A DNA stretch of 64,000 bases. It comes from an uncultured Pseudomonadales bacterium (lineage in GTDB: Bacteria; Patescibacteriota; Microgenomatia; UBA1400; PJMF01). The position numbers and the translations under genes are program-made. This document shows, piece by piece, positions 6,690 through 35,120 of the stretch; the stretch's first letter is position 1, and each line of letters opens with the position of its first letter. A model generated the notes under the pieces. The model had not been told where the DNA came from, ran no database searches, and saw nothing but the letters and a program-made list of their open reading frames with translations. The DNA is taken from positions 84,551 through 148,550 of the forward strand of contig CAZKVV010000001.1 in NCBI GenBank assembly GCA_964556485.1. Direction: 5' to 3'.

Positions 6690-6722
6690 TGAACCGCCTC
6701 CAAAAACGGTGTTTTTTTAGGG

Positions 6723-7785: not shown

Positions 7786-7850
7786 AAAGCAAACTGCTGC
7801 ATCACCATTGTGTAAGCTATCGTACATTGACAATTAGTCTATAATGACGT

Positions 7851-9273: not shown

Positions 9274-9374
9274 GGGGTTGCGCCTAGAGTATCGCCCTTC
9301 ATGGTTTTAGTCTCCATACGTCTTATAGTATTTACAAGTCTTATAATATATGTTATAATTAGTCGTTGTGGTTT

Positions 9375-9790
9375 TTACTGCAACTGCACATTTAAACTGG
9401 CTGATCGCAAGAGAGGCCAAGTGTGGAACATCAAAAAAACATCAAATGGTATTTTTCTACCTCGTTGGTGACCATGCTTGGCCCCTCTTAAGTGCGGAGA
9501 GGTGTGTCACTCGCCCCGACATGGGTGAGAAACAATTGCTCAGGTGCCTTGTAAAGTGCAAGGTCGACCGCCACGCACGAATATCGTGAATTGGATTATT
9601 CACATCTGTTTTACAAAATACAGATGCCATTGGGGTGGTATGTAGCACCACTGAATAATTCAAAAGCCAAGTAAGCTACGAAGGAAAGAAGTTACCAAGT
9701 GGGTCTGAATTGGTTTACACTAATACTGCAAACCAATTCGAGAATCCCATACTCATGGTAAAAAAGAACTTTTTAAAGTCCACTTCGTCA
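9375..9790 (+). ncRNA. rnpB: candidate RNase P RNA (bacterial type A-like, divergent)
   Basis: No plausible ORF. A -35/-10 promoter-like TTACAA-16-TATAAT lies at about 9331-9358. Matches to M1 RNA conserved regions, in the correct order: GAGAGGCCAAGUGUGGAAC vs GGGAGGAAAGUCCGGGCUC (CR-I/P4 5'); CAGGUGCC..GUAAAGUGCAAGG..ACCGCC vs AGGGUGCC..GGUAACG..GUGCAAC..ACCGCC; a P12-like hairpin CATCTGT/ACAGATG; GGGGUGGUAUGUAGCACCAC vs GGGUGCGGUAAGAGCGCACC; AAGCCAAGUAAG vs AAGGCCAAAUAGG; GAGAAUCCCAUACUCAUGG vs ACAGAACCCGGCUUAUCGG (P4 3'). The P4 strands covary (GUGUGGAA pairs with UCCCAUAC). Ends are approximate. Confidence 0.45.
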
Positions 9791-9972
9791 TGATTGATCT
9801 CCAAATATTCGGGGAACAGTCAAGAGACGATGAAGGACAAAAAATTGTTTTTCAAATTTCCCTGCCCCAAGTGAGGCGCCCCATGGACTACGAGATTCCT
9901 TTAAAAAAGGAACCGAGTCAAAATAAAAGGTTGGGCAATCACTTCACAAAAAAATAGAATGTGCACATATAA

Positions 9973-12036: not shown

Positions 12037-12082
12037 GATATGACTTCCGCATGAGTGGTATTTGTTGTATTATCATACCCAT

Positions 12083-16647: not shown

Positions 16648-16698
16648 TTTTTTTATTTTTTCTAATGGTGTTACAATTGAAAATACTCACAAGTTAAA

Positions 16699-17043
16699 AT
16701 GAGTTTTTCATACTTTGGGAAAAAGAAGGAAAAAATGACTGAACAACCTCCAGTAGACACAACGAATCCCGAACGGCCAGCACCGGGGACACCAGAATAT
16801 GCCTTACTAATGTTCGACGAGGGTGAGGATAGAGATTTTGTTAGAACCTTGTCTACTGAGTTTGAAGAGATTTCTCAGGAAGAAGTGGAACAACGGGTTG
16901 TTGCTTTGCAGCAATTGGCCGAACAACACTTCGAAGCAGTTCGCTCAGAGGCATTAAAAGTTAACGAAGCAGGTAGTAAAATGCTCAGTGGCACCGTGAG
17001 TGTCATTTTGGAGATCCAAAGCATTGGGCAGAGCACAGCGTAG
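16699..17043 (+). CDS. hypothetical acidic protein (114 aa)
   Basis: ORF in the same orientation, 51 nt after ychF. No family recognised. Confidence 0.4.
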   Translation: MSFSYFGKKKEKMTEQPPVDTTNPERPAPGTPEYALLMFDEGEDRDFVRTLSTEFEEISQEEVEQRVVALQQLAEQHFEAVRSEALKVNEAGSKMLSGTVSVILEIQSIGQSTA

Positions 17044-17051
17044 TGCAAGAG

Positions 17052-17534
17052 ATGACGTATGAACAACTGCGTGCATTTGCGACAGAAAATCTGGATACAG
17101 CTTTTTGGACAAGTAGATCTAAAACTTCGCAAAGGCCAAATGAGTGGTCAGATATTCCCGAAGATGAATCCGCAGCCGAGCCGTCTGCCCTTGATAAAGT
17201 TCACTCATTAGCAACTATGGGTGAAATTATTTTTTCACCCTTTACTGGTGAATATGCGGTACTTGTTCCCAGAGTGAATGTAGATGCAGCTAGACTTGAA
17301 CGATTTTCGAAGTTGTTGCAAGCTGTAGCAATTAGCGAGTATGATCGCGGACAAAATGGACATCCAGCTTTTTTTGACAGCTATTTAGAAGAGTTTGTTT
17401 CTTTTGAAGTACGGATTGTTAGAATTAAAACTGAATCCCAGGCGGAAGCTCCTATTTCAGCAGTTGTACATAATACATTACTTGGAAAAGCTAGAGCATG
17501 GGTTGAGAAACAGAGAAATCGATTTAGCAAGTAA
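17052..17534 (+). CDS. hypothetical protein (about 160 aa)
   Basis: ORF abutting the previous one (GTG 17043 overlaps its stop; first ATG at 17052). No family recognised. Confidence 0.45.
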   Translation: MTYEQLRAFATENLDTAFWTSRSKTSQRPNEWSDIPEDESAAEPSALDKVHSLATMGEIIFSPFTGEYAVLVPRVNVDAARLERFSKLLQAVAISEYDRGQNGHPAFFDSYLEEFVSFEVRIVRIKTESQAEAPISAVVHNTLLGKARAWVEKQRNRFSK

Positions 17535-17559
17535 TACGTGTAATTAATAGAAAGTTACT

Positions 17560-18891
17560 ATGAATGGCGATTACAATCAAAGATTTCCATATCGAGATGA
17601 ATCTCAAGGAGGTAAAGTGGAAGTCAGCTCGCCATCTGAGCTCAAAACGCTCTTACATCGGTACTTTGATTTGGATGAATTGAGAGGGCTGTGTTTTGAT
17701 TTTGGAATTGCTTTGACTGAACCACAATATCGCGCTTTAAATGCATTGAATCGAAGCGATCTTGCAGATTATATGGTTAGAGCACTAGAACAATCTGGAA
17801 ATCTGCAACGTTTGCAGGATGCCATTGTAACCCTGCGACCTTTTTTATCTGATGTACAAAAGACAAGTGAGTTGCCATATGCACTTGTTGATAAAAAGTT
17901 ATTACTTCTTAAAAGCGTACTTAATGATAAATTTAATAAAAGCGAGCTTCAGAACCTTTGTTTTGATTTGAACATAGGTTATGAGTCTCTATCAGGTGAA
18001 AGTACATTTGCAAAAATACAGCATCTTATAATCATATGTAACACTACTAATCGCATTGATGAGTTAGTTGACGCAATAGTAGCAGAACGCTCAGAAACTG
18101 GTTTGAAAGAAATCGAAGCACCAGCTCAACCTCAAACCGAAAAGTCTGTTGAAGTTTTAAAACTTCCAAACAGTGTTCTTATCCGTGACTTTTTGATGCA
18201 ATTTTCACTAAAAGAGCTGACAATACTGATGTATTTTTCTGATCTGCCAGTCGGCACGAAAAGTAAACCAAGTATGTGTCTAGAAATTGCTCAATATCTT
18301 CCTAGACATGGTATAGATGAGTATGCGAAATTTTTGCAGGCTTTACACACGTACAAACCAGAGCAGGACTTGGTTGCAGCACAATTACTAACATCGTACG
18401 ATTTACTACCAACTGCTGAAAATAAGAAAATTGCAATTTTCAACACTTTAGTGCAGAAGATTACTACCAAGGTGGCGCTTGACGACGTATGTTTAGATAT
18501 ATTTAAAGTAAAACTTGCTGCAGATCTGTATAGTTACGACAGAAAGTCACCAAATATAGATCTTGGTATAGTACAACTTATGGAATATGTTGTAAGGCAA
18601 GCATATTGCTCTGACATAAATGAATTACCAGCTATTGCTGATGCAGCACTCAATCGGCCTCAAGCTGCAAAAGAATTAAATCAGTTAACAACGCGTCGCG
18701 ATTTTGTTAGTTATGTTAGAGTGCACGCAGTATCGAGCGAAGATTTTAAGAATGTTTGTCTTGCTTTTGATTTAGATCATGAAGATTTAGAAGGTGCAGA
18801 TCCTTATGAAAAAGCACTGTATTTAGTTCAAAAATTGTACTCTCATGGAATGATCTCAACATTTACTCAAAAGATGTCTCAGCTAGTCTAG
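17560..18891 (+). CDS. protein composed of five tandem effector-associated (EAD1-like, Death-like) helical repeats
   Basis: Five repeats of ~80-90 aa, each with the pattern [L/I]xx[L/F]L...F...EL..LCFDL.I.YE.L.G...........L......L.EL...[IL]...RP. Repeat 1 is SELKTLLHRYFDLDELRGLCFDFGIALTE...NLQRLQDAIVTLRP. Repeat 2 is KKLLLLKSVLNDKFNKSELQNLCFDLNIGYESL...RIDELVDAIVAER. Repeats 3-5 are more degenerate (FSLKELTILMYFSDLPVG; VALDDVCLDIFKVKLAADL; SSEDFKNVCLAFDLDHEDLEG). No other domain. Confidence 0.6.
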   Translation: MNGDYNQRFPYRDESQGGKVEVSSPSELKTLLHRYFDLDELRGLCFDFGIALTEPQYRALNALNRSDLADYMVRALEQSGNLQRLQDAIVTLRPFLSDVQKTSELPYALVDKKLLLLKSVLNDKFNKSELQNLCFDLNIGYESLSGESTFAKIQHLIIICNTTNRIDELVDAIVAERSETGLKEIEAPAQPQTEKSVEVLKLPNSVLIRDFLMQFSLKELTILMYFSDLPVGTKSKPSMCLEIAQYLPRHGIDEYAKFLQALHTYKPEQDLVAAQLLTSYDLLPTAENKKIAIFNTLVQKITTKVALDDVCLDIFKVKLAADLYSYDRKSPNIDLGIVQLMEYVVRQAYCSDINELPAIADAALNRPQAAKELNQLTTRRDFVSYVRVHAVSSEDFKNVCLAFDLDHEDLEGADPYEKALYLVQKLYSHGMISTFTQKMSQLV

Positions 18892-20767
18892 CCGCATGCA
18901 AAGCTAACACCTCCCGAGGATCTTCAAGCAGTAATAATGCTAAACAAAACTCCATATGTCGTCTGGTAGTGAAGTCTTCTGATTTTTCATGAGTACTATG
19001 AAAATATGTTTCTGTTGCTGCAAAATATTTTTTTGCTTGCTGAAGAGCTTCTTCTTCAGTTGTGACAGCACCCTCATCCTGATCTAATAGGACACATTTT
19101 GCAATCACACCAATCCATTCACCACCTTTTTTGTTAAGGCTTTTTAATAGCTCTTTATTTGAGAGCAATGGTTTAGCAACTTTTGTTGCAATGTCATATT
19201 CAGCAGTTTTTTGACTAAACCAACGTTTCATTTTCACTAAATCTTGCAAATCATCTTCTTCAAGTGGTGTATTTTCATTACCATTTCTTCCTCGATAATC
19301 TGCTTCGGTTACCAACATTAAAAAATTAAGTGGCAAACCTGCTTCGGTTGCGAGTTTCCGCGCCATTTTTCGCAGTGTGGTGGCACTATCAAATGATGTG
19401 GCCGTGCTACTTGGTTCTCTTGGAAATTCTTGTTTAAACACACCTCCTAACTGCATGTGTTTTGGCACCAGAGCTTCAACTTGCATTTTGGTAGCATTAT
19501 CAATTTTTAATCGATTCAGGAAACGTCTAGTTGGTTCAAGTCCTGCTGCTTCATGTCCAAATGCGCGGTAGTAGCCATCTTTCAATTCAGTAGTGGCGGG
19601 TTTTCCTAGATCGTGACAGAGCATCGTCAACATGAGCACTAGTCGGCGGTCATCAGATAGATTTTCACGCTCGGCAATGAGTGCGGCAGCATCGAGGGTT
19701 TGTAGCGTATGCACCCAGGCATCACCTTCGGGATGAAAGAGTTGATGCTGAGGCGTGCCAATCAAGGCAAAAAATTCAAGCCAGTATTTTTCAATAAAAC
19801 CAATTTCTCTTGCAAATTCTAGACCAACAGATGGTCTGTTACTTTTAAGCAGCATCTTGAGCAACTCATCTCTGACACGTTCAGCTGCAAGTGTATCCAA
19901 TAAACCATCTGCAACCATTTTGGTACAAAGAGCAACGGTCTCTGGAGTAGGCTGCATCTCAAATCGAGCAGTAAACTGCATAATGCGAAGAACTCTGAGT
20001 GGGTCTTCAATAAATGTTTCATTGTCTGTTATGCTTATTTGCTTGCTTTGAAGATCAAGTTTTCCTAAAAATGGGTCATAGAGACTCTTGAGCAGCGGAT
20101 CATAGGAAAGGGCATTCATTTTCAGATCACGACGGCGGCTTGCTACTTTATAATTCATTGAAGGATTAGTAACAGTTTTGAAATCTTTGTGACCAGGCCC
20201 AGTTGAAACATCTGTACGGGTCACTGATACATCAAGTGGTTCAGCAAACCCATCAATGTAGACTTTTATAACACCGAACGACTTACTCACACTATCGATT
20301 TTGCTCTTCGGAAAGGTTTTTGTAAGCACTGCCTGCACTGTTGGCACATCAAGACCATACACTTCAATGTCAAAATCTTTGGGTTTTGGTGTTGTGCCGG
20401 TGAAGTCAGAAAGTACGACGTCGCGAATTATGCCGCCAACGAGCAAAGCACGACCACCAACAGTTTGCACGTTCTTACACAGGTGTAGTACCTCGTCAGG
20501 GATTGTAAATCCAAGTTCTCGTTCTTCTACGTTTGTTTGGGCATCAATGTTTGGAGTAAGGTAGCTCGCGTTGACCCCAGTCAGTTCACTAATAACGAAA
20601 AGAGTAGGGAGTGCAAGGGACGGATCAACGGTGATTAGTTTTTCTTCTTCAGGCAGCGTTACCCCAAAATGCTCCTGCATTATTTTGGAGGTTTCTTGCC
20701 AGCTTTGAATGGTTTCATTTTTCATGTTTAAGCCCATAAGTATACAGGGAGAAGGTGCTTTTGTCAA
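18863..20767 (-). CDS. cca: CCA-adding tRNA nucleotidyltransferase (class II, HD domain) with a ~190-aa C-terminal extension
   Basis: LVGGIIRDVVL (GGxxRD), DFDIEV, RRDLKMNAL (RRD.T.NA) and the HD motif CHDLGK. The 3' end overlaps the convergent EAD gene by 29 nt. Met11 or Met15 may be the true start. Confidence 0.8.
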   Translation of the reverse strand: MTKAPSPCILMGLNMKNETIQSWQETSKIMQEHFGVTLPEEEKLITVDPSLALPTLFVISELTGVNASYLTPNIDAQTNVEERELGFTIPDEVLHLCKNVQTVGGRALLVGGIIRDVVLSDFTGTTPKPKDFDIEVYGLDVPTVQAVLTKTFPKSKIDSVSKSFGVIKVYIDGFAEPLDVSVTRTDVSTGPGHKDFKTVTNPSMNYKVASRRRDLKMNALSYDPLLKSLYDPFLGKLDLQSKQISITDNETFIEDPLRVLRIMQFTARFEMQPTPETVALCTKMVADGLLDTLAAERVRDELLKMLLKSNRPSVGLEFAREIGFIEKYWLEFFALIGTPQHQLFHPEGDAWVHTLQTLDAAALIAERENLSDDRRLVLMLTMLCHDLGKPATTELKDGYYRAFGHEAAGLEPTRRFLNRLKIDNATKMQVEALVPKHMQLGGVFKQEFPREPSSTATSFDSATTLRKMARKLATEAGLPLNFLMLVTEADYRGRNGNENTPLEEDDLQDLVKMKRWFSQKTAEYDIATKVAKPLLSNKELLKSLNKKGGEWIGVIAKCVLLDQDEGAVTTEEEALQQAKKYFAATETYFHSTHEKSEDFTTRRHMEFCLALLLLEDPREVLALHAARLAETSFE

Positions 20768-20779
20768 ATAGTTATAGGC

Positions 20780-20808
20780 TTGACAAAATGAGCATTTTAG
20801 CCTATAAT
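20780..20808 (+). promoter_or_regulatory. consensus sigma70-type promoter (TTGACA-17 nt-TATAAT) for the 21044 gene
   Basis: Exact TTGACA at 20780-20785, a 17-nt spacer, and exact TATAAT at 20803-20808. Predicted TSS near 20815, about 228 nt upstream of ATG 21044. Confidence 0.55.
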
Positions 20809-21043: not shown

Positions 21044-22003
21044 ATGAACACTTTAAATCGTTTGGCGCAAGTAAATCAAATTATTTCTGTGGGTAGTGGG
21101 GATGGCGTAGCCACCACTGCAGGTTTTAATGCTTGGATGGGACGCGCTGTCCCAGTTGTTTTCACCCAGGCCTTTGATGTCGACAAGATCGACATCTCTG
21201 GTTGGGAAAAAAATCGCCAGGTGTTATTTATTGACCTGGCAGTCAATAACCAGAATCAAAATATGACGGCTGAATTTGTTCAAAAAATTCAGGCTGCCGG
21301 TCACACTATTGTGGCCATTATCGATGAACACGATGCCCAAGCCTGGCAACAGGTATTGGGCGAGACATGGGACACACTGGCTGTACAGCCAGTGACCCAA
21401 AAAACGGGGCCTATTAAATCTTCCGGTGCTTTGTTGAAATCTGTGCTTGGCACAGAGATGACTGAGCACGTCGCCGAACTGTTTGATGCAGCAGATGCAG
21501 CCGACCGGTTTGATTTTTCAACCCGGTTTGGTCAAATGATTAACCAGGCCGTGAAGTCCAAAATTACGGACAACAAGCGCAGGGTACATTTGGCCGAGTG
21601 GCTTGCTTTTAACAGCGAGCCTGACCAGATGATTCTGGGTTGGATCCAGGAGTATGAAAAAATCCTGGAGAACCATGCTGCTATCATCAAAGAAGCCACA
21701 TGGGTTGTGCAAGGAACAATCATTCGCGTCAACACGACAGACGTCGTGTTTGACATGTCTGGATTGACTGCGGAGCTGTACCGTATGGCTCCGATTGTAA
21801 TTATGGAAGCGAAAGCATTCCACAAACCCGCAGGAGGTCAAATGCCCATGGTGGCAGTTATGACCAACAGAAAGGATTTGGATTTGCTGGCTGCATTAAC
21901 CGATGTTGAAGGCGTTGAACTGTTGGGTGGCTTTGCCTCTAAGGCGAATGTTACTCCGGCAAGTGAAGCTGCTGCAACTGAAGTCGTTAAAAAATTAATC
22001 TAG
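21044..22003 (+). CDS. hypothetical protein (319 aa)
   Basis: Clean ORF with AAAGGAG RBS. No family recognised. Codon usage looks slightly more GC-rich than neighbouring genes. Confidence 0.55.
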   Translation: MNTLNRLAQVNQIISVGSGDGVATTAGFNAWMGRAVPVVFTQAFDVDKIDISGWEKNRQVLFIDLAVNNQNQNMTAEFVQKIQAAGHTIVAIIDEHDAQAWQQVLGETWDTLAVQPVTQKTGPIKSSGALLKSVLGTEMTEHVAELFDAADAADRFDFSTRFGQMINQAVKSKITDNKRRVHLAEWLAFNSEPDQMILGWIQEYEKILENHAAIIKEATWVVQGTIIRVNTTDVVFDMSGLTAELYRMAPIVIMEAKAFHKPAGGQMPMVAVMTNRKDLDLLAALTDVEGVELLGGFASKANVTPASEAAATEVVKKLI

Positions 22004-22146: not shown

Positions 22147-24894
22147 CTATATATTTTCTTCTAAAAACGGAGAGTCTAAATACCCACCAGTGTTTCCGTT
22201 GTAATTACTCCAGAACAATCGAGTTTTCTTGAAAGTGTTGACTTCAGCTTGCACAGCCTGCACTTCTTGCCATGTTTGTGGTTGTCGCTGCTGCATAAAG
22301 TAGTCATTAAGTGCTTGAGAAATATGATCTTGCACCTGTGTAGATAACCTGATGGGAAATCCGCCCTGGATAATTCTTAGTTTTGTATCTGGTTGTGTAA
22401 GCAGAATGTCGGTGACACAGTCCATAACCATTGGTACCAGAACGCTGACCACTTTCATATGCTCACCATCTTCAATATTAAATGCACCAGTGCTAATTGA
22501 GCCATCGATGGCATCAATTTTTTGAATTTCGTTAGTTGTAGTAGTGAATTCAGATAGTAAAACTTTTGCTGCGATAGGTCGAGTAATTTCGACAAGAAGC
22601 GAAATAGTTTGACCATGCTTGCCAGCCTCGATGTTTGCTACTAATTCTGCAGTATTTGGTTTTTGCACCTTACTGTTTGTCAGTCCGGAAATAGTCTCAG
22701 TACTTTCTGATTCTGGGATGAGCGCTAGCAATGGCTCAACTTCTGTTGCAAAGTGTTTGCGTAACAATTCTTTATAGCTCGCATCAAGCTGATTCCAATG
22801 TCCACTCATTTCACTGCCGTACTTTTGTGTGAGTTCAGAAATCAGGTGAGAGGCGAGAGTGGGGTTGGTTGGTTTGAGTTCAGCTGCATAAAAAATAAGT
22901 GAAGGCAGGAGCGAGTCGTAACTTTGTCCGGTGTGACTTTGGACGTATGCCTCAGAAGTTAGGATCTGCAGCAGTGTTTCGACAAGTGCTGTTTGTTGTT
23001 GTTGGTTTTTTGTGGCAATTGTTTCTGAAATTGCACGCCCAACCAGTTTGGTGTCGATGGTTCTTGCCAGTGATTTGAGTCGATATCTGTTGAATTTATA
23101 GTCTTCCATGAATGGTTTTATTTCTTCAGGAAGTCGTACATCTACCAGTCCGTAGGTAAGGTCATTTTTGTCCCAGATATGAGCTACAGCTGTTTTATTT
23201 TGAGAAATAACAGAGAGAATAGTGATTTTTTGTTCAAGCGGTAGTGAAGTGAGTGTTTTTTCATTGACCATTGCCAATACTGCCAGCAGCCGCTCAGCAT
23301 CATTGGTTTTACAGTATTCAGTAATCCATTTCTTGGCGTGTTCTGCCTTGCGTTCAATGACTGCCGGTGGTTCGGACAGGGCAGTTCGCTGTAGCAATAA
23401 TGTTCTATTTTCTTCGACAGATTCCGTAAAAAGTGGCTCATAAAAAAGCAAATCTTCTTCGGTAAGACCCACCGTCGTTAGCGTGCCTTCATTAGTGTTG
23501 GAGGTGGGCAGGGTAAAGATGCATTTGCGGGTTCCAAGTTCATACCTAGTGTTACTTGGCTCAACTTGCATAAGAGTGAACTGTTCCGTGCCCAACGCTG
23601 CAGCAATCTGCGATGCCTTTTTTTCAAAATGAGAATTTGAGTGTCTAGGATAGTCAAAAAAATGTTGCAAACTTTGCCACAAAGCATCGGCAGGGATGTC
23701 ACTGCCAGCTGTTTGGGGAGATGCGACTAGGGCATCATGAGAACCAAACGAACTTTGTTTGCTGTAGTGGTAGCCTTTGCCAAATTGCGCCTCCGCAAGC
23801 GCAAATCGATCTGCAAGCAGCGCTAAAAGTGGCGAATCGTTGGTACCTGGATTAGTATTTTGTTGAAAGATTTTGAACTGAGCACCGATGGTTTCTTGGG
23901 TATTTTGAGGATTTTTTTGGTCGTCTATGAGCAGCAAAATATCGGATTTGCCTTTACTATTTGCCAGTGCCCGTGCGCCTTTTTCTTGGTTTAATCCACG
24001 AATATCAAAGTAGGTGAGTGTTATGCCAGCCATTGTCGTAACTTGACGATATGTTTCTGGATTGGTGAGTCTCTCAACGAGTGGAGCTCGTGATTCTTTT
24101 TCTTTTTGTGCGCCAGCTATCAGTACTTCACTGTATGTAGCTTTTATTTCCTCGGTTGTGGCTCCGTGCACAATTTTTTCTAGAGCTGTAACTGCTTCAA
24201 TGAGAAGCTGCGCCTGATTTTGTGGGGTATTTTCCTTGAATTTTTCTTTGAGTCCATAAAAAAGTGGCACAATCAAATCAAGGTCAATGACATCGCTTTT
24301 CAGTTTACGAATAGAACCTCTTTTGTTAGTGTCGAACCCTTCCTGCGCTTGGAGCCAATAATCTAAATCTTTTAATTGAAGAGTGTCGGGGAGATTTTTT
24401 TGAAAGTGAGTAGAGCCATAACGAGCCTTGAGTTCCGTTGCTGCAGGCTCACCGTTACTGCCATTAGCGAAGTTTCCCAGTGTTTTTTTTTGACTTACTT
24501 TTGCGTCATTTTCGTCAGGTGAATGTCCAAAGCCTTCAATAACTAATGTGGAAGGGTTTGAAAAGTAGGAGCTGCTGTCTTCATTTTCTTCATGAATGTT
24601 GGGTGTAAAGAGCACGTGTGCATTTGCAGAAATAAGTCCTCCTTTTAGTGCAAAGTAGTAGGCAAATAGTTGATCGATGTCAAAATCTTGAAAACTGTGG
24701 CCCATGACTACTTGAGTGAATACCTGCTTTTTTTCTCGGGATGCAGCTTCACCAATAAAAACAGTAGTGAGGATATCTGGTAGTAGAGTTGCTAACTGTT
24801 TAGCTTCCGCTTGTTCCAATTCAGCAATTTCTGCTAAATTTTGAGCAACAGTTTTGAAATGTTTTTGAGTATCTTGTATTTCAGTCTCCGACAT
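22147..24894 (-). CDS. large hypothetical protein (915 aa)
   Basis: Uninterrupted 2.7-kb ORF. No family recognised. Divergently oriented to the 1890-aa helicase gene with a 61-nt intergenic region. Confidence 0.6.
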   Translation of the reverse strand: MSETEIQDTQKHFKTVAQNLAEIAELEQAEAKQLATLLPDILTTVFIGEAASREKKQVFTQVVMGHSFQDFDIDQLFAYYFALKGGLISANAHVLFTPNIHEENEDSSSYFSNPSTLVIEGFGHSPDENDAKVSQKKTLGNFANGSNGEPAATELKARYGSTHFQKNLPDTLQLKDLDYWLQAQEGFDTNKRGSIRKLKSDVIDLDLIVPLFYGLKEKFKENTPQNQAQLLIEAVTALEKIVHGATTEEIKATYSEVLIAGAQKEKESRAPLVERLTNPETYRQVTTMAGITLTYFDIRGLNQEKGARALANSKGKSDILLLIDDQKNPQNTQETIGAQFKIFQQNTNPGTNDSPLLALLADRFALAEAQFGKGYHYSKQSSFGSHDALVASPQTAGSDIPADALWQSLQHFFDYPRHSNSHFEKKASQIAAALGTEQFTLMQVEPSNTRYELGTRKCIFTLPTSNTNEGTLTTVGLTEEDLLFYEPLFTESVEENRTLLLQRTALSEPPAVIERKAEHAKKWITEYCKTNDAERLLAVLAMVNEKTLTSLPLEQKITILSVISQNKTAVAHIWDKNDLTYGLVDVRLPEEIKPFMEDYKFNRYRLKSLARTIDTKLVGRAISETIATKNQQQQTALVETLLQILTSEAYVQSHTGQSYDSLLPSLIFYAAELKPTNPTLASHLISELTQKYGSEMSGHWNQLDASYKELLRKHFATEVEPLLALIPESESTETISGLTNSKVQKPNTAELVANIEAGKHGQTISLLVEITRPIAAKVLLSEFTTTTNEIQKIDAIDGSISTGAFNIEDGEHMKVVSVLVPMVMDCVTDILLTQPDTKLRIIQGGFPIRLSTQVQDHISQALNDYFMQQRQPQTWQEVQAVQAEVNTFKKTRLFWSNYNGNTGGYLDSPFLEENI

Positions 24895-24955
24895 AAGGGT
24901 TTTTTGTGCTTAAATTAATACTACCTGTATATTGGGTGTAAGTGAAGCTTAAAGC

Positions 24956-27900
24956 ATGCAACAAGAAGAAAGAGAAACAACTAAAAAACCTGAAAGCAAA
25001 CATGGTGGTCGGGAGCCCTATATCTGGAAAGACGGCGTTGCGCGTGTAGAGCGACCGATGGACATGTATTTGAAAGAAGTTTTAGACAAGCTATCTCAAA
25101 AACAGGTTGTTGTAGTTCAGGCCGAGACTGGAGTGGGCAAGACTTCCAGAATTCCTCAGGCAATCATGGATAGTCAGCCTAATACAAAAATCTACATGAC
25201 TCAGCCAAGACGGTATGCCGTACGGATGAACGCTGGATATATTGCCAGAGAGAAAAAACAACGCTTGGGACAGGATGTTGATTTTACCTTACGCGGTGTT
25301 CCTGGCGAGAATAGCCAAGATAAAAAAGCAAGTCGAGATGCAAAACTTGAGGTCATGATCGACGAAACATTGGTCAATAGAATCTTACGAGAAAAAAAGC
25401 TTCCCGATGGAGTGATTATTGTTGATGAAGCGCACGAGCGGTCGATAAATATTGATCTATTGTTGCTGCTTATTCGTACCTACTTGCCAAACTCTCCGAA
25501 TACAAAAATTCTGATTACCTCAGCAACTATTGATACCCAAAAGTTTAAAGGCTACTTTAAGTATTCTCCAGAAGAGTTGACGGCATATTCTGGCAAAGAG
25601 TCCGAACTCGATTTTGCTGCTGAACCAGTGATTGCCCTCAATGAGAAATTGTTCCGAGTCGAGACAGAAATGATCCACCTAAATTCTGGAGAGCACCATA
25701 CGACAAAGGCAATCGAAACGGCTGTGGAAGTCTTTAAGCAGTTTGTTGTTGGTAAAACAGAAGCTGGGTTAAAAGATCGTGTGCTAGCAGAAGAAGAAAG
25801 AATTTATAGAGAAAAGGGATTTATTAGCTTTTCCGTCCTACCAGTACCTCAACCATTAACCATTCCACCAGAACAAGAAGGTGATGCTCGCATTCCGGTC
25901 GCAGATGGAACTGTTTTGGTTTTCTTACCTGGTAAAGAAGAGATCGCAGAAGGTGTGAGGGTGTTAAAAGAGTATGCAAGAAAAATTGGGTGCTCTGAGT
26001 ATGTCGAGTGTCTCTCGATGTATAGAGGGGTAGATGATGCTGAGAGAAACGCAATTGAGGCCCCAATTGTTCCTGGCAAGTTGCGAGTTATTTTTACTAC
26101 TGAAATTCTTAAATCGTCAGTAACACCAACAAAAACAGTGGTGGTCATCGACTCATTTCAGGTTAAGCGCGATGTTGAAAATGAGCATGGTGTGTCAGTA
26201 CTTAGAAAAGTGTCACAGTCTGGTGCGGAGTCAGAGCAAGCAAAAGGTAGAGGCGGTAGAACAAATACAACGGTCTATAAACCAGTTGTTGGCGGAATTG
26301 ATGAAGTTTTATCAATGCAGGAAGAGTCAGGAGATTATTGGCCACAGCCTGCAATTTTGAGAGAAGGCATAATTTCGGTAACGCTAAAGATGGCTGCTGC
26401 TGGGTTGGATATAAAAACTGCCAAATTGCTTGACAGACCTAATCAGAAAAATGTTGATCGAGCAGTAATTCGTTTGCAACAAATCAATGCACTTGATGAT
26501 GAAGGCAGAATCACGTCGTTTGGCAGAGAGTTGCTGAGATTTTCGATTGCACCAGAGCAAGCCAAAGCGTTATTTGAGGGAGAAAAGCAAGGGGTATTAC
26601 CTGAAAGTATGATTGCGCTAGCTGTAGCCTCAGAGGAAGGCATATTCTCACTTCCTCCAAGAGGAATGAGAGAACTTATTTGTTCGGAGGTTGATCTGCA
26701 ATCTGGGTTAGAGAGATATCTGGCAACAAAGTGGTTGAGGGAGATTCACTATAGTTTTTCTGGAATTGCTCAAGACAGCGGAGAGTTGCAAGAAAAATTC
26801 CAAGCTATTCAGCGAGAAAAGTGGGGAGAAGTTCGACTTGCGTTTAAAGATTCTTATCTGAACTCAGCGCGTTATCCCGTTTATATTAATACTTTGGAAG
26901 CCAAGAATCTTTGGCAACATGTGGAGCAGACGCGCATCTATGATGGTAGGCAAATGATTGATGGATTGTTACTTGATTATGTAAGAGAACTGGTTTTTGA
27001 CAAGCTGAGTTCAAGTTCGATTACCATTCCAACTACTCAAGAATCATTGCACGCTGACCTGATGAAAATCAAAGCTACTATAAATGTCAAACTTACCCAG
27101 TTTGGTGGTGCACCACTGGAAATGCGTTTTAATCCAACTGTCTTGAGCGAGCTAACGTTTCCTTTAGGGTACGGCATTGTTCGTTCGGAGGTGATAAAAC
27201 AAGCTCTGCAATTTAGGGTAGAAAATGAAGATGATATCTTACTTGACGTATTTAATATTCGCTATGATCAAGGATTCTTTAGAGTAAAATCATCTGAGAA
27301 CGATTCATCCATTCCAAATGATTTTTTTAGCACAATTTTGTGTCCCGATTGTAAAGTCAGGAACCGTGATAGCGATCTCGATGAGCATGATTATCGAAAA
27401 CAAATATATGAAAAGAGATGGTTGCAATTTGCACTTGATCAAGATGGTCAGCAAACAAACTCCGATTTTGTTGCATCTGTAAATGCATTTCGAGCCTACA
27501 AACAGGCAAAAAGACAGATGTCCGACAATCAACTTTGGCTTTGGTGCCAGGCAAATGGGCTCAACCTCAAAAAAATGCAGCAAGTTGATACTAGATTAAG
27601 TTATTTGATTGACGAGGTTGAAAAAAGTAGGTTATCACTTTCCGAAAATGTTTCCAGTCGACGTGCATTTTCTTCAGATGCACTTACTAAAGCGATGTTA
27701 GCTGGATTGGCTGCCAATGTTTGTTTTGGTCAATCAGGTCCGGTGGCTCCATTAATCAGTGCATCTAAAGAATCAGCGCTCAATGGTAAGGCTCCTTACT
27801 ATATATTTGGTGGCATCAGAAAATCAGAAATTAAGCCCAGAAAGTTAGAGCATCATCTTCATTTTGCCAGCCTTTGTGCGCCAATAAAGCTGGAGTGGTT

Positions 27901-30628
27901 GGAGGAAATTTCACCACAACTGTGCACCAAAAAAAGAATTGAAAATAGTGCAGCGATAACTCCAGAGGGTGCGGTTAAGTTTAATTTTAACCAGTATTAT
28001 ATTGGTCATCAGTATGAAATGGGCAGTTATGTTGTGGATGGGATCATAGCTCAAGAAGCACTAGCATCATTTATTTTTGCAAAAAAACTGACACATCCAG
28101 ATCATCAGCGGAATCTAGAGGTTATTGCCGAAGCACATTCGGTGTTACTCAGATCAAAGCAGGTTCGAGTTCTCGAGACGCTAGTTGAAGATTGGTATAA
28201 GAGCAAGTTCAAAGGTTTATCGACAGTAGCGGAAATTGAAAACGTTTCGCTTGCGCTCACGCCAGAAATACTCACTGAATTGCTTGGACTCGACTATGCG
28301 AAACTCAAGGCAGAAGTTGAGGCAACTATTCCAGATGAGGTTACAATTAGGGGGGTACAGTATTCAGTAACGTATCGACTTGGCGGCGGCAAGTTTTTTC
28401 AGGATCTTTCCTTGCCAAATACCGTCGCAGCTGAGTTGCTGTTGCATGATTTACCAAATTCTCCACAAGGTTTTGAGCGAACAATTGTTGTTTCCTTTGA
28501 ATCAGGTGCTTCAACAACAAGACGAGTGGTGACGACTGAAGAAAATTTGAAAGAGTTGCAGCAAGAAGTTGAAAAAAAACGAAAAGAATTGGTTTGGCAG
28601 CAATTCATTTCTGCAAATTCAGCGCACTTGAGAAAAACTTATTTCGATTCTGGATATTTTTGGCACGAATCTGCCTCTCAAGATAGAAAAAAAATTATTG
28701 TTGCAGATGGAGATCCTTTACCGCTTGAGGTATTACCAACACAAGCTATATGGGACGAGCAAACTGGTTCACAATGTTACTACTATTTTGAAAGGGATCC
28801 ATATTCATCACTCACTGGATCGAAAGCGTATAACATTAGAGTGTTTAACAATGAGGAAGAGTATTTGGAACGGAAGGCGACAATCAACTCTGAGAGAGAA
28901 GAATTGCTCAGAGAGAAGCAACGAAAAGTGGATGCAGTTCGATTTGAAATGGAAACAAAAGCAATGGTTGCTAGTGCTGATGCCATGCTGAAATCTTTCG
29001 ATCTTAGCCAGCACCTACGATATGGTTTGACAGCAAGGCAGGTGGAGAGCGGCTACTATGCTGACGATGTCGTCAGTTTATTTGCAAGACTACTGGCTGT
29101 GAAAAAAAGTATTGGTTGGTTTAATGGATATTCTGGAACTCCAGATTGGAAAGAAGCCCGACGGTTGATGCTCCAGCTAAATGCAGAACTTACAGAAGCT
29201 CAGGAAAAATATGATTCTCCAGATATAAATGCAAAAACTACGGCTGCATTTATGGGAGAAGAAGCACTTTTCAACTCAGAAGGTTTCACAATTCCGCAAA
29301 AGATTGGCAAGTTGAATGGGGAAATCAATCTTGGCATGCGCCGTTCTCAAGAAAACAATCGTTGGTATTTGGTCATGTCAGATGATGATGGTATTTGGTC
29401 AAACTATAAAGGTGCCTATTCGAGTAGATTCTCAGGAGGATATGAGAGCCAAGGATTATTGCTTCGGGCTGTGAAAGCGCAATTTGCTGAATATGGATAT
29501 TCTTTTGTTCCAGTTGAAAATCTAGCAGTTGCAGAGGTGAGTCCCGAAGCACTGAGAGATTCGCGATTTAGAGACTTGATTTTTCGTCAGTCCGAACATG
29601 AGGGTGTGTTTACTGGGTATCGCTATGTTGATACTCAAGGACCATGGGAGCTGGTATACATGAAAAAAACTGCTGGGACTGAGGGGTGGGAATTGCACTG
29701 TCTTGACTTAGAAACAGGTGAAATTCAAGGTCCTAAGGTTTTTAATGACTCAAGGCAGTTTCGATTTGTGGAGAATTTGAGTGATATTGGTGGGCAAATG
29801 ACACGTCTTGGAGATAGGAGCTTTATAAATCGCACAGATGGTGGTATTACAAATAGTAGGTTTCAAAAGTTAGAAACACTTGAAAGCGGTCTCAAGAGAT
29901 TTATGGGTGGTACAGGTGGTTCAAGTAGGGTGCCGGCTGTATTCGCACCTGAAGTTCGTACTTCTACTAGGAAGCCTGAGCCTCAAAGAGCTCCTGCGGT
30001 TGTTCCACAGCCTGAACCTTTTGTATATCGTAGACCTCCAGATCGAGTCATTGACAGACAAGAGCTCGCCCCAATAGAAAAGGCAAAAATATATGCGTAT
30101 TTGCAAAGCAGCGAAGTGTCGTTGCGAGAAAATATTGCTAAGATTGAATCTGGGAAAGATAGTCAGTCTATTAGACAGACTCCAGAGTGGCGCTCGGCAT
30201 TTATTAAAGCAATGTTAAACCCCGATGGTCTAGCTGCAATTTTAGAGATGAGTTGGAGTTCTGATCTGCTAAAACAGACTACCGATATTTTGACTAAAGC
30301 TGTCAACAGTTGGATTAATGAGTATGAGAGTCGTAGAAATTTTGGTGAAAATTTAGATCAGAAATCATTAGATGAACTGCGAGTTGCCCAGGGTATTTTT
30401 GAGTATGTACAACCAATGCGCTCGTTTATTTCTAGAAATAGAGCAAATATTGCGGATTATGTTGGCGGTGATCGAGAATCAATTACAGCTTTTTATACGG
30501 GGCTTTTGCTGTATTCACAAACAAATGGAGTTGCGGTACTCCATAACAAAACAGTAGTAGATGAGAAAAACAAAAGGAGTGATGAACAGATTATCGAAGA
30601 AGTATTAGATTCAATTCCAATCATCTGA
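24956..30628 (+). CDS. giant DEAH-box (HrpA/HrpB-like, DExH) helicase fusion protein, 1890 aa
   Basis: The N-terminal ~700 aa carry helicase motifs: AETGVGKTS (motif I), VDEAHERSINIDLLL (DEAH, motif II), TSATID (motif III), a helicase-C region (LVFLPGKEEI...), and an HA2/ratchet-like segment (LQQINALDDEGRITSFGRELLRFSIAPEQAKAL). The C-terminal ~1200 aa have no recognisable family. Confidence 0.8.
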   Translation: MQQEERETTKKPESKHGGREPYIWKDGVARVERPMDMYLKEVLDKLSQKQVVVVQAETGVGKTSRIPQAIMDSQPNTKIYMTQPRRYAVRMNAGYIAREKKQRLGQDVDFTLRGVPGENSQDKKASRDAKLEVMIDETLVNRILREKKLPDGVIIVDEAHERSINIDLLLLLIRTYLPNSPNTKILITSATIDTQKFKGYFKYSPEELTAYSGKESELDFAAEPVIALNEKLFRVETEMIHLNSGEHHTTKAIETAVEVFKQFVVGKTEAGLKDRVLAEEERIYREKGFISFSVLPVPQPLTIPPEQEGDARIPVADGTVLVFLPGKEEIAEGVRVLKEYARKIGCSEYVECLSMYRGVDDAERNAIEAPIVPGKLRVIFTTEILKSSVTPTKTVVVIDSFQVKRDVENEHGVSVLRKVSQSGAESEQAKGRGGRTNTTVYKPVVGGIDEVLSMQEESGDYWPQPAILREGIISVTLKMAAAGLDIKTAKLLDRPNQKNVDRAVIRLQQINALDDEGRITSFGRELLRFSIAPEQAKALFEGEKQGVLPESMIALAVASEEGIFSLPPRGMRELICSEVDLQSGLERYLATKWLREIHYSFSGIAQDSGELQEKFQAIQREKWGEVRLAFKDSYLNSARYPVYINTLEAKNLWQHVEQTRIYDGRQMIDGLLLDYVRELVFDKLSSSSITIPTTQESLHADLMKIKATINVKLTQFGGAPLEMRFNPTVLSELTFPLGYGIVRSEVIKQALQFRVENEDDILLDVFNIRYDQGFFRVKSSENDSSIPNDFFSTILCPDCKVRNRDSDLDEHDYRKQIYEKRWLQFALDQDGQQTNSDFVASVNAFRAYKQAKRQMSDNQLWLWCQANGLNLKKMQQVDTRLSYLIDEVEKSRLSLSENVSSRRAFSSDALTKAMLAGLAANVCFGQSGPVAPLISASKESALNGKAPYYIFGGIRKSEIKPRKLEHHLHFASLCAPIKLEWLEEISPQLCTKKRIENSAAITPEGAVKFNFNQYYIGHQYEMGSYVVDGIIAQEALASFIFAKKLTHPDHQRNLEVIAEAHSVLLRSKQVRVLETLVEDWYKSKFKGLSTVAEIENVSLALTPEILTELLGLDYAKLKAEVEATIPDEVTIRGVQYSVTYRLGGGKFFQDLSLPNTVAAELLLHDLPNSPQGFERTIVVSFESGASTTRRVVTTEENLKELQQEVEKKRKELVWQQFISANSAHLRKTYFDSGYFWHESASQDRKKIIVADGDPLPLEVLPTQAIWDEQTGSQCYYYFERDPYSSLTGSKAYNIRVFNNEEEYLERKATINSEREELLREKQRKVDAVRFEMETKAMVASADAMLKSFDLSQHLRYGLTARQVESGYYADDVVSLFARLLAVKKSIGWFNGYSGTPDWKEARRLMLQLNAELTEAQEKYDSPDINAKTTAAFMGEEALFNSEGFTIPQKIGKLNGEINLGMRRSQENNRWYLVMSDDDGIWSNYKGAYSSRFSGGYESQGLLLRAVKAQFAEYGYSFVPVENLAVAEVSPEALRDSRFRDLIFRQSEHEGVFTGYRYVDTQGPWELVYMKKTAGTEGWELHCLDLETGEIQGPKVFNDSRQFRFVENLSDIGGQMTRLGDRSFINRTDGGITNSRFQKLETLESGLKRFMGGTGGSSRVPAVFAPEVRTSTRKPEPQRAPAVVPQPEPFVYRRPPDRVIDRQELAPIEKAKIYAYLQSSEVSLRENIAKIESGKDSQSIRQTPEWRSAFIKAMLNPDGLAAILEMSWSSDLLKQTTDILTKAVNSWINEYESRRNFGENLDQKSLDELRVAQGIFEYVQPMRSFISRNRANIADYVGGDRESITAFYTGLLLYSQTNGVAVLHNKTVVDEKNKRSDEQIIEEVLDSIPII

Positions 30629-33382: not shown

Positions 33383-33826
33383 ATGATGATTCATCCAGAT
33401 AAGGCAAGGCAAATTTTAGCGGAAACCAATCGTTTTCTTCCAGATTCAGAAATGAGCGAATTGCCTCCATTAATGGTGAGTGAGATGGTCCTAACTGCGG
33501 AGCGAATGGTTGAGCTCGGCCTCACTCAAGAACAACAAGAATTTTTATCGCAGTACGAGCCCATTTCCTTTAGTGTTTGGAGTGAAGCTCCTATACAGGG
33601 AGACTTTAGGCTTTCACAGTTCACCACAATTGGTTTAGCTGAAGGACTGATATCAAACCACGACGAGTGGGACAATCCTCACCAGTCACTAGTGAAAGCA
33701 ATGCAGAGACAGTGCAATAAATCACGTATCTTTAGGGCAGTAAACAAACCACTAGCTTTTTTTTGCGGTGAGTTGTCCTGGCTTTGGAGGTACTCGACTC
33801 AAAAATCCAGGACAGGCAACAGTTGA
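33383..33826 (+). CDS. hypothetical protein (147 aa); possibly the N-terminal part of a frameshifted gene
   Basis: ORF overlapping the next ORF by 59 nt. A T8 homopolymer at 33757-33764 sits where the next reading frame opens. Confidence 0.4.
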   Translation: MMIHPDKARQILAETNRFLPDSEMSELPPLMVSEMVLTAERMVELGLTQEQQEFLSQYEPISFSVWSEAPIQGDFRLSQFTTIGLAEGLISNHDEWDNPHQSLVKAMQRQCNKSRIFRAVNKPLAFFCGELSWLWRYSTQKSRTGNS

Positions 33827-35120
33827 CAGTGTCTCGAGCACAAGTTACTCAAAACTACTATCGATATGTAACTCGCTTTTTACACCTAAAGTCATAGTAG
33901 GTCACTCTGCTGGCGGCGAGGCATCACTACAGTATTCTTTTCAACAGCCAATTGAGGGTGAAAAGAAAGTGCCAGTCGTAGCATTACACCCAGCGGTTTC
34001 ACTTAAAAATCAGGGTATATTTAGGACGATATCTAATTTAGATGCCACAAATCGATTTTTTAGGCAATTGCTAGTGTTTACTCCGGTTGTAAGTGCGATA
34101 GAGAATCAAATACTCAGTTGGCTTGTTGGTGCTGATACAAAATCTGATGCAACAAAATGGCAGTTGGCACTACATAAAGATGAAGCTGAAAGAAACACAG
34201 TGGCCTATAGACTAAAAAACCGCGAACTCGAATTGCCAGATGATCCCGCAAGGTTCGAACAGTACAGCATGCAGCTGCTTCCCACGGTATTGTTAGGTGA
34301 GGCAGACAGACTAACCACTGAAATGAATGCTCGTTCTTTTCTTCCCGTTATCCGCCAGCTCCTGCTAGAGAGAATAGGAAAAGAGACATCGCTTATTGTT
34401 ACCTCAGAGGACCAATTAAAATTACTAGCTAAAACGGTAGGCACCAGCATTGTATCTGGAAATTGGGGACATGATGCGGTATTTTTTGACGAAGTGGCCC
34501 AAGAAGCTGCGGCGACACTTATAGTTAATCAGTTGGAAATGAGCTTGCTGAAAGATAGTTGGTATTTCCAAGAGCTTAAGAACATATGTGTGTTGCTTAG
34601 GCAACAAGGTTTTCCTTTAGAGTTTTGTTTGTATTCTGACATCCGTGAAGAACACGCAAACTTTGAAAAGAATATGGCCTTGTTGTTGGAGCATGTAAGG
34701 GATGATCAGGATTTTGTGAGACGTGTCTTTACTTCTGAAAAAGACAGTCTTAGATATGAGCTCGAGCAGCGATATATCATGGTTTCTTGGATGCAAGTTT
34801 TTCGTCAACTCATTGGTATGGCGGGAGTTGTAACTGAGAGGATCAATGGGGGTGGAGCCGATAGGACTGCGAAGGCTGAACTAGAACGTATGCTGGTAGA
34901 GATAGCAACCATGATGACAAAGTTTCCTTCTGTAGAGTTGTATCTTCATGCAATGGGTAAGGAGTATAAAAATGAGAATATAATCGAATCTATAGAGTTG
35001 CTATTAGAATTGCTCTTTAACCAAGAAGATGATCCAGAAAAACCAAAAACTATTCCTAGAGCTTTTTTCGAAAGTGAAAGCCAAAGGTTTTCTTTTAAAA
35101 ATGGTTTCGCGGCTTATTGA
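33768..35120 (+). CDS. hypothetical protein with an alpha/beta-hydrolase-like nucleophile elbow (GHSAGG); 450 aa
   Basis: GTG start directly after the T8 run. VIVGHSAGGEAS motif; no family confidently recognised. Confidence 0.45.
   Translation: MSCPGFGGTRLKNPGQATVDSVSSTSYSKLLSICNSLFTPKVIVGHSAGGEASLQYSFQQPIEGEKKVPVVALHPAVSLKNQGIFRTISNLDATNRFFRQLLVFTPVVSAIENQILSWLVGADTKSDATKWQLALHKDEAERNTVAYRLKNRELELPDDPARFEQYSMQLLPTVLLGEADRLTTEMNARSFLPVIRQLLLERIGKETSLIVTSEDQLKLLAKTVGTSIVSGNWGHDAVFFDEVAQEAAATLIVNQLEMSLLKDSWYFQELKNICVLLRQQGFPLEFCLYSDIREEHANFEKNMALLLEHVRDDQDFVRRVFTSEKDSLRYELEQRYIMVSWMQVFRQLIGMAGVVTERINGGGADRTAKAELERMLVEIATMMTKFPSVELYLHAMGKEYKNENIIESIELLLELLFNQEDDPEKPKTIPRAFFESESQRFSFKNGFAAY

Follow-up and report, generated by a model that had tools for sequence, protein, structure and literature searches.

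A conserved divergent gene pair encoding a predicted HrpA-lineage DEAH helicase and an unannotated partner protein in an uncultured Patescibacteriota bacterium

The Divergent Gene Pair and Its Conservation

We analyzed a 64,000-nt stretch of DNA (hereafter the window; contig CAZKVV010000001.1 of assembly GCA_964556485.1, positions 84,551 to 148,550 of the forward strand) from an uncultured bacterium of the Patescibacteriota and found that its two largest open reading frames (ORFs) form a conserved, divergently transcribed gene pair. Gene B (22147..24894, minus strand) encodes a 915-aa protein and gene H (24956..30628, plus strand) a 1890-aa protein; both begin with ATG, and they are separated by a 61-nt spacer (24895..24955). 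H is predicted to be an HrpA-lineage helicase whose C-terminal region has been replaced. B represents a dedicated, unannotated partner family, and we infer a joint function for the two. Frames of this length are impossible by chance at 42% GC and homologues were found for both, so the ORFs are real. The pair covers 8482 nt (13% of the window), and the next largest ORFs encode 640 and 634 aa. These values agree with the initial annotation of this DNA, which had described the two ORFs and their spacing and had placed both among the largest genes (8.5 kb in total). The GC content of the B/H region (0.41-0.43) is the same as that of its surroundings.

The head-to-head arrangement of B and H was found in four lineages, namely, the window and loci L001/L002, L014, and L007, with L019 as a fifth in which B lies 3.6 kb away. 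In L001/L002, the pair has a 62-nt spacer and is located beside rpsF-ssb-rpsR. In L014 (H homologue P0004), the B homologue is divergent from H (hidden Markov model [HMM] E 2.5e-177) and is cut by the contig end. L007 (H homologue P0006) has an 832-aa B homologue with 30% identity (E 2e-94), head-to-head with H across a 32-nt spacer, in a context unrelated to that of the window: ileS/ftsW lie on one side and ftsZ, ftsA, and mur genes on the other. In L019, B is upstream of an H-type gene in two pieces, a core ORF and a tail ORF, which flank a 151-aa hydrophobic ORF (L019 16268-21032); only the H-family profile of the region after the OB fold (E 1e-21), and not HrpA, matches the tail piece. The B genes of L018 and L019 are 98% identical, yet the helicases downstream differ: L018 has a 771-aa superfamily 2 (SF2) ORF (15648-17960) with VDESQ and SATI motifs and no match to the H profile, followed by ileS. 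L004, L005, and L013 were not counted for pairing, as their contigs stop at the junction or close to it. A locus scan with narrower B alignments gave two genome loci and three metagenome loci.

These patterns show that B and H are linked as a gene pair. The coupling that the initial annotation had read from the back-to-back arrangement, and for which it had proposed a synteny check in related genomes, is thus supported by the recurrence of the pair (including the unrelated context of L007) and by the conservation of the spacer. Chance adjacency is very unlikely, since only about 50 B representatives were found among the 1.84 billion entries searched, against a few dozen H-family proteins retrieved.

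The spacer is a divergent control region common to both genes, with the conserved core TTTGTGCTTAAATTAATACTACCyGTATAwwGGGTsTAAGTGAAGCT. Between the window and L001, 51 of its 61 positions are identical (84%), compared with 67-74% in the adjoining coding DNA. The spacer of L014 would also be about 62 nt if its H uses an upstream ATG. In a sigma-70 consensus scan, no hexamer pair passed in the spacer, and the candidates TTGTGC-18-TATATT (plus strand) and TTCACT-17-TAGTAT (minus strand) are weak and were picked by eye only.

The two genes evolve at different rates. In the comparison of the window with L001, overall identity is 47% for H and 77-92% for B, rpsF, ssb, and the S41 peptidase gene; by region, it is 33-55% in the tail of H and 74-84% in B.

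Helicase H

H is, as judged from its sequence, an HrpA-clade DEAH/RHA helicase with the whole DEAH cassette and an HrpA-specific connector. It carries motifs I, II, III, and VI of the DEAH/RHA family of SF2 helicases (AETGVGKTS, VDEAHERS, TSATID, and QAKGRGGR) and matches Protein Data Bank (PDB) sequences at 1e-43 as a single sequence and at 1e-109 as a profile. GKT (T58/G61/K62), DEAH (157-160), SAT (189-191), and QxxGRxGR (428-435) are invariant in 24 family members. Such family-wide invariance of the catalytic motifs leads us to expect ATPase activity in H. With Pfam, we found DEAD (41-193, E 2.7e-7), Helicase_C (317-436, below cutoff), and HA2_N (503-529), and OB_NTP_bind, HA2_C, and DUF3418 were not detected by Pfam on the single H sequence. 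A winged helix, a ratchet (HA2), and an OB fold are present, the latter two recognized via profile alignment only (812-~1030).

The family of H comprises at least 24 proteins of 1050-1890 aa among the 5.8 billion protein clusters searched, and one of these is labelled Candidatus Gottesmanbacteria. Below the family, the scores fall from 304 to 157 bits, and the matches that follow are ordinary HrpA proteins, all with PF11898/PF07717/PF21010. H itself lies outside the HrpA equivalog: it scored 187.8 bits with the NCBIfam HrpA model (TIGR01967; cutoff 722.75) and 161.2 bits with PRK11131 (cutoff 1400).

The best PDB match of the H-family profile is full-length E. coli HrpA (9ggr/9gft, E 1.6e-109), with Prp43/Prp22 at ~1e-98, and the alignment covers HrpA 76-529 and 541-868. 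An hhalign comparison of the H family with an HrpA alignment (probability 100%, E 1e-99) extends to HrpA column 878. Conversely, the HrpA profile matches the window H at residues 35-558 and then again at 812-1146, with profile positions 508-847 corresponding to the second segment (E 5.8e-12). In E. coli HrpA, the beta-meander comprises residues 688-740, HB2 741-850, alpha+beta-1 851-996, alpha+beta-2 997-1077, and the Hook 1078-1300 (PMC11419001). The alignments to HrpA 868/878 and the match at H 812-1146 thus include the HrpA-specific beta-meander and HB2 connector, and the first strands of alpha+beta-1 are the only part of the HrpA C-terminal region that could be aligned in H.

Using Pfam, PDB alignments, the HrpA profile, and conservation, we assigned the first part of H (25046..26635, plus strand) to RecA1 (31-205), variable insert 1 (206-316), RecA2 (317-500), and the winged helix (501-~560), such that a variable insertion of ~110 aa separates the RecA domains. 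Insert 2 (residues ~561-811; 26636..27388, plus strand) is a lineage-specific segment of ~250 aa at the junction of the winged helix and the ratchet, across which the HrpA profile position only jumps from 504 to 508. It is present in P0001-P0004 only, with an occupancy of 0.1-0.5 in the family alignment, and has no Pfam match or known relative. The ratchet (a helical bundle), the OB fold, and the HrpA-type beta-meander and HB2 follow in residues 812-1146 (27389..28393, plus strand), as placed by the HrpA and family profiles and hhalign. The motifs and the helicase-C and HA2 regions named in the initial annotation were therefore recovered, and its contiguous core within the first ~700 aa was not, since insert 2 splits the core, which resumes at 812-1146.

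The part of H that lacks any assignment is the tail of ~745 aa (residues 1147-1890), which is shorter than the ~1200 aa without recognizable motif given initially because the HrpA profile covers 812-1146. In the family conservation profile, residues 1147-1640 (28394..29875, plus strand) are weakly conserved to ~1450 and variable beyond. Residues 1641-1890 (29876..30625, plus strand) consist of a Pro-rich linker (1641-1685) and a C-terminal domain of ~200 aa, as defined by sequence and HMMs. This domain is common to P0001-P0004: an HMM built from P0001 and P0002 finds P0004 (1.5e-14) and P0003 (1.1e-7), and the reverse search also works. The domain is not a feature of all long H proteins, as cross-validated HMMs did not detect it in P0005 and P0006. 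The identity of the H tail to P0002 is 33-55%.

No Pfam model or PDB sequence matched the tail, and its comparison with HrpA 860-1300 by hhalign gave a probability of <1%. PF11898 (DUF3418) is missing in all 24 H-family members and was found in every true HrpA match. A diverged DUF3418 gained no support as the identity of the tail, given that the profile comparison had no signal. The tail is thus as unusual as initially described. Nuclease, RNA-binding, or cell-surface modules had been suggested for it; none was found there, and the nuclease-like candidates of the locus are instead B and gene A (see below). H has no hydrophobic segments, which leaves a cell-surface module in it unsupported, and none of the three proteins (H, B, and A) has membrane segments, so a cell-surface or membrane role was rejected. 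It had also been considered that the C-terminal region might simply be the known HrpA extension and that the 915-aa protein might be a common one with no link to the helicase. The ~115 aa that directly follow the OB fold are indeed an HrpA-type connector; the remainder is not a recognizable DUF3418, and B is rare and linked to the helicase. Taken together, the profile comparisons indicate that H has a fast-evolving tail of ~745 aa where HrpA has its ribosome-docking C-terminal region, which in H has either been replaced or diverged beyond recognition.

Shorter H-family members (1090-1138 aa) were found in contexts that do not look like those of the Candidate Phyla Radiation (CPR), namely, L015 (7105-14527) and L017 (2613-15329). 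The former has RND efflux/OEP genes, a 945-aa gene located 58 nt upstream, and an integrase; the latter has U-box, Sel1, ankyrin, and RNase III genes and a group II intron reverse transcriptase (RT). These contexts suggest host-associated Gram-negative bacteria.

Partner Protein B

B has no match in Pfam, NCBIfam, or PADLOC, in agreement with the initial annotation, in which the 915-aa protein was entirely without assignment. A word-indexed search of the 5.8 billion clusters, with the single sequence and with a 5-sequence profile, returned 4 proteins, including three relatives with 77%, 49%, and 48% identity. It missed the homologue in L007, for which an exhaustive HMMER scan was needed. The 50 representatives obtained with HMMER are nearly all 830-930 aa in length and match end to end. 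No Pfam domain, DHH/DHHA1 included, was found in any of 34 B-family members at E<=1, and the B-family profile had no match among PDB sequences.

An AlphaFold2 model of B based on a 34-sequence alignment reached a pLDDT of 83.6 and a pTM of 0.69 (a 4-sequence alignment gave a pLDDT of 54). The model opens with a long N-terminal helix, which is followed by three domains. Residues ~59-420 (23635..24720, minus strand) form an alpha/beta module with a large helical insertion, delimited by the model and invariant columns and taken by us as the range of the Foldseek match given below. Residues ~482-723 (22726..23451, minus strand) form an all-helical, repeat-like domain according to the secondary structure of the model, and residues ~742-909 (22168..22671, minus strand) a C-terminal alpha/beta domain with no known relative. 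A hydrophobic stretch (813-833) is a helix in the model with a pLDDT of about 90 or more and is read as buried rather than membrane-spanning.

The structure prediction that the initial annotation had proposed for this protein thus gave a confident model, and a significant PDB match did not follow: the best Foldseek match against the PDB had an E-value of 0.03 and is helical-repeat noise, attributable to the helical-repeat domain at ~482-723. Against the predicted viral structures of BFVD, the scores were borderline; the top match was a protein of Erwinia phage Y3 labelled Phosphoesterase (E 1.9e-3, probability 1.00), and further matches were a Megaviridae protein (E 3e-3, probability 1.00) and an Exopolyphosphatase of Bacillus phage Hakuna (E 0.03, probability 0.99). 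The Y3 target is most likely the product of gene Y3_159, judging from its length of 347 aa and its DHH motifs. Y3_159 has the motifs YHQGCADG, VVD, LDHH, SDRD, and GGEGHINAAG of the classical DHH family, and its homologues in RefSeq phage records are labelled as DHH phosphoesterase or DHH family protein.

Eight residues are invariant in the B family (G65, D72, D74, E120, E368, G372, H386, and E479) and six are near-invariant (H66, N141, D297, R363, G384, and R417). Most of the invariant polar residues fall in the module at ~59-420, and the acidic and His residues among the invariant ones (D72, D74, E120, E368, H386, and E479) would be expected for a metal-dependent hydrolase. By eye, residues of B stand at the places of DHH motif I (H66/D72/D74), motif II (E120), motif IV (D297), and GGGH (G384/H386). 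As a lead from structure, there is about an even chance that the N-terminal module of B is DHH-like, that is, a DHH/DHHA1 phosphoesterase fold in which motif III has been replaced. A tblastn search with residues 55-420 gave no match in phages. Neither B nor A is present in IMG/VR viral contigs, and a phage origin of either was rejected for this reason.

Gene A and Recurring Candidate DHH-Type Neighbours

Gene A (21044..22003, plus strand) is convergent with B and encodes a 319-aa protein that is a candidate divergent DHH-type phosphoesterase. It has the motifs GSGDG, FIDLA, IIDEHD, SSGALL, AADAADRFDF, and GGFASKA and has no match in Pfam or NCBIfam. An hhalign comparison of the A family with a phage DHH family (E 6e-4, probability 28%) places FIDLA on VVDFS, IIDEHD on VLDHHN, and SSGALL on GSGALL, which correspond to motifs II and III and SGALL. 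The top PDB match of A is non-significant, though IIDEHD aligns in it with VIDHHD. A perfect 12/12 sigma-70 promoter (TTGACA-17-TATAAT; 20780-20808, plus strand) points toward A. A second, back-to-back promoter (11/12, minus strand) in the same region (20739-20808) points toward the CCA/poly(A)-polymerase-HD gene (18863-20767).

Proteins of this kind recur beside B and H homologues. A copy of A with 77% identity adjoins B in L003, where the two are likewise convergent, and one with 46% identity is directly upstream of the H homologue P0009 in L010/L011. In L007, the position of A, convergent to B, is occupied by a bona fide MYG1 gene (6390-7301, plus strand; PF03690, E 1.5e-63), which looks unrelated to A. 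MYG1 is a DHH-family 3'-5' RNA exonuclease (PMC6582341). In L006, a 286-aa gene (8994-9854, plus strand) that has an NLDHHG motif and no Pfam match is directly upstream of the H homologue P0005. The C-terminal signature of its product, 'WGGLPNIKGSPQNIGSKL', aligns with the conserved FGGHxGIVxSPxxxGSxL of B, giving a common signature GG(H)xxIxGSPxxxGSxL (hhalign E 3.9e-4, probability 35%). Eleven other neighbour genes, used as negative controls, gave no E-value under 0.047. The 945-aa gene upstream of P0013 (L015) and other neighbours were rejected as relatives of B or A by comparison. Each of these links is individually weak; jointly, an HrpA-like helicase plus a DHH-type protein is the most economical description of the module.

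Proposed Function and Alternatives

The data establish the homology and domain order of H, the fact that B is rare and conserved, and the linkage of the two genes; a physical interaction of H and B, an RNA substrate, catalytic activity of B and A, and any connection to the ribosome are inferred. We tentatively favor, at somewhat less than an even chance, a conserved module of an RNA helicase and a DHH-type phosphoesterase that serves in RNA clearance or ribosome quality control. H would be an ATP-dependent RNA helicase that docks on structured RNA or ribonucleoproteins (RNPs) through its tail and insertions, which would provide targeting and partner binding. HrpA splits ribosomes (PMC11419001), and by analogy, stalled or collided ribosomes would be the leading candidate target of H, which, like HrpA, would translocate on RNA (3'->5'). 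B would be its dedicated partner, with an N-terminal module most like DHH/DHHA1 proteins of the RecJ/NrnA/MYG1 class. B, and possibly A, would associate with H and act by hydrolysis on the RNA that it extracts or on the end groups of that RNA, and the outcome would be a device for helicase-coupled RNA clearance or ribosome quality control.

Compared with known systems, H resembles E. coli HrpA (9gft/9ggr and 6zww) in its RecA1/RecA2 motor with GKT, DEAH, SAT, and QxxGRxGR and in its winged helix, ratchet, OB fold, and beta-meander/HB2 (HrpA 76-529 and 541-868/878). Unlike HrpA, it falls far under the NCBIfam cutoff (188 vs 723 bits), has no detectable DUF3418 (alpha+beta-1, alpha+beta-2, and Hook), and carries a 250-aa insertion between the winged helix and ratchet, a 110-aa insertion between the RecA domains, and a tail of ~745 aa vs ~450 aa. 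It also differs in having a dedicated, divergently transcribed partner gene, of which we know no report for HrpA. As for B, the best viral-structure matches of its model are phage DHH proteins, which would bring it close to the DHH/DHHA1 group (RecJ, NrnA, MYG1, and phage proteins); in contrast to these, it is ~3 times the size of a typical DHH enzyme and has large helical insertions, two extra domains, and no DHH triad.

RecQ-RecJ, MCM-Cdc45/GAN, RhlB-PNPase, and Ski2/Mtr4-exosome are generally known to join a translocating helicase with a DHH-type or other exonuclease, and the present locus would follow the same logic. Those systems use other helicase families and are not divergent gene pairs, and to our knowledge, none of them involves an HrpA-type DEAH helicase. 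Prp43, Prp2, and DHX15, which work with G-patch cofactors, have a helicase fold close to that of H (Prp43 and Prp22 are among the top PDB matches) and likewise rely on a dedicated partner. In contrast to these systems, B has no G-patch motif or similarity to such cofactors, and H carries the bacterial HrpA connector.

Several observations weigh against a catalytic RNA-clearance or ribosome quality-control module. The DHH triad (motif III) is absent from B, with GN141F in its place, and B might therefore be catalytically inactive. No DHH protein was among the top 50 Foldseek matches of B in the PDB, and hhalign comparisons of the B N-terminus with Y3_159, MYG1, a 7-member phage DHH alignment, and A were never significant. 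A, for its part, has no Pfam DHH/DHHA1 match. The connection to the ribosome would come only from homology to HrpA, over a region that excludes the HrpA ribosome-binding domains. The linkage also has exceptions. No B was found within 10 kb of the H homologues P0005, P0007, P0009, P0013, and P0017, and P0007, P0013, and P0017 have no A within this distance either. The adjacency to rpsF-ssb-rpsR is not kept in L007. L003 (HK-STAS-PATE-16, GCA_020632255.1, JACKFX010000006.1) has the whole syntenic block with intact B and A and no H. There, the 772-nt gap between rpsF and B (7757-8528) keeps, on the expected strand, a 5' stub of the first ~40 codons of H (68% identity, E 1.5e-6) that is almost the same as the start of H in L014. 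H was therefore deleted in L003, and the stub marks the deletion as recent.

The missing motif III would also suit a different role, in which B is a non-catalytic cofactor or scaffold that tethers or activates H, and RNA or RNPs are remodelled without degradation. G-patch proteins activate eukaryotic DEAH helicases, and Cdc45 is an inactivated DHH protein that serves the MCM helicase. B has a large domain of helical repeats and an additional C-terminal domain, which are typical of scaffolds, the slow evolution of B beside the fast-evolving tail of H (74-84% and 33-55% between the window and L001) would fit as well, and this role agrees just as well with the conserved pairing of B and H. We nevertheless consider it unlikely, as the invariant acidic/His cluster (D72, D74, E120, E368, and H386) is unexpected in an inert scaffold and true or candidate DHH enzymes (MYG1 and A) accompany the module. 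The absence of H from L003 and of B near several H homologues could likewise mean that B and H have no functional link and are two large lineage-specific genes that are neighbours by chance. This is extremely doubtful because B and H stay head-to-head even where B has only 30% identity and the genomic context is unrelated.

The fast evolution of H could also point to an undescribed conflict or anti-phage defence system made of a helicase and a nuclease, since H is 47% identical between the window and L001 with its tail evolving faster than its neighbours (77-92%), and H varies in presence: it is deleted in L003, and another SF2 helicase takes its place in L018 vs L019. Moreover, the neighbours of H homologues without B include an integrase in L015, a group II intron RT in L017, HicA and HTH_17 genes in L008, and PLD genes together with a recombinase-like gene in L006, and a gene with effector-associated domain 7 (EAD7) lies 2.2 kb from A and about 3.3 kb from B. 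Nonetheless, H, B, and A are negative in PADLOC (PADLOC-DB v2), by which a known defence system was rejected, and among five H homologues and five neighbour genes, the sole PADLOC match was that of the coiled-coil of P0009 to LmuB. Stable housekeeping synteny (rpsF-ssb-rpsR-S41 or ileS/ftsZ) surrounds the B-paired copies, the GC content is native, IMG/VR contains neither B nor A, and the closest relative of H is a housekeeping RNA helicase, all of which make a defence role decidedly unlikely. Very improbable, too, is a DNA module, in which a RecQ/RecJ-like helicase-exonuclease pair encoded beside ssb would serve repair or the restart of replication. H is directly upstream of rpsF-ssb-rpsR in the window, L001, and L005, and some DEAH/RHA helicases unwind DNA structures (DHX36 is among the PDB matches of H). 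RecJ, the archetypal DHH nuclease, works with a helicase and SSB. Against this, the adjacency to ssb is lost in L007, L006, L008, and L010, the nearest relatives of H (HrpA, Prp43, and Prp22) are RNA helicases, and in L007 the accompanying DHH enzyme, MYG1, acts on RNA as an exonuclease.

Under the favored reading of a helicase-phosphoesterase module acting on RNA, the locus would offer a new coupling of a DEAH helicase to RNA hydrolysis. A stronger form of it, which we regard as rather unlikely, is that H, B, and A (or MYG1 for A) constitute a hitherto undescribed machine for RNA or ribosome quality control in Patescibacteria-like bacteria. In this machine, an HrpA-derived helicase would have given up its collision-sensing C-terminal region for a new docking tail and recruited a new DHH-derived nuclease of ~900 aa with otherwise novel domains. 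Such a machine would physically couple the disassembly of ribosomes or RNPs to RNA degradation. In E. coli, ribosome disassembly and RNA degradation are carried out by separate factors, HrpA vs SmrB with tmRNA. The role of HrpA in the rescue of collided ribosomes was shown recently, and its C-terminal region recognizes the collision; the present locus combines a branch of the HrpA lineage in which that region appears to be replaced, a dedicated and unannotated partner of ~900 aa, and recurring true or candidate DHH-type proteins. A literature search turned up no publication that connects HrpA with Patescibacteria or DEAH helicases with DHH neighbourhoods. If correct, the proposal would give a first functional handle on the B family, which has no annotation and, for its confident model, no significant PDB match, and a lead on RNA or ribosome quality control in uncultivated bacteria with reduced genomes. 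The B/H pair is a testable two-protein system.

Genomic Surroundings

The pair resides in ordinary chromosomal surroundings. The upstream flank has ychF, the CCA/poly(A)-polymerase-HD gene, and A, and the downstream flank has rpsF, ssb, rpsR, and the S41 peptidase gene. Genes farther away in the window include cysS, hisS, dnaB, glyA, tgt, and glmS, and tRNA-Leu is the sole RNA gene. The hosts of the module are uncultivated bacteria that probably belong to the Patescibacteria/CPR. The closest relatives are MAGs with the labels HK-STAS-PATE-16, an isolate name that points to Patescibacteria, and Candidatus Gottesmanbacteria.

The EAD7 gene (17560-18891, plus strand; 443 aa) has two EAD7 stretches (Pfam E 1.9e-23) and a weak PADLOC match to DrmMI (E 0.0025), and it is missing from the otherwise syntenic region of L003. 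This hints that the interval from ychF to A is a variable or conflict-related spot. Further ORFs without Pfam match in the window are located at 247-1596 (449 aa), 12062-13984 (640 aa), and 33383-35120 (147 + 450 aa). Close to these ORFs, a gene of the radical-SAM type occupies 14005-15531 and a photolyase-like one 10011-11462 (minus strand).

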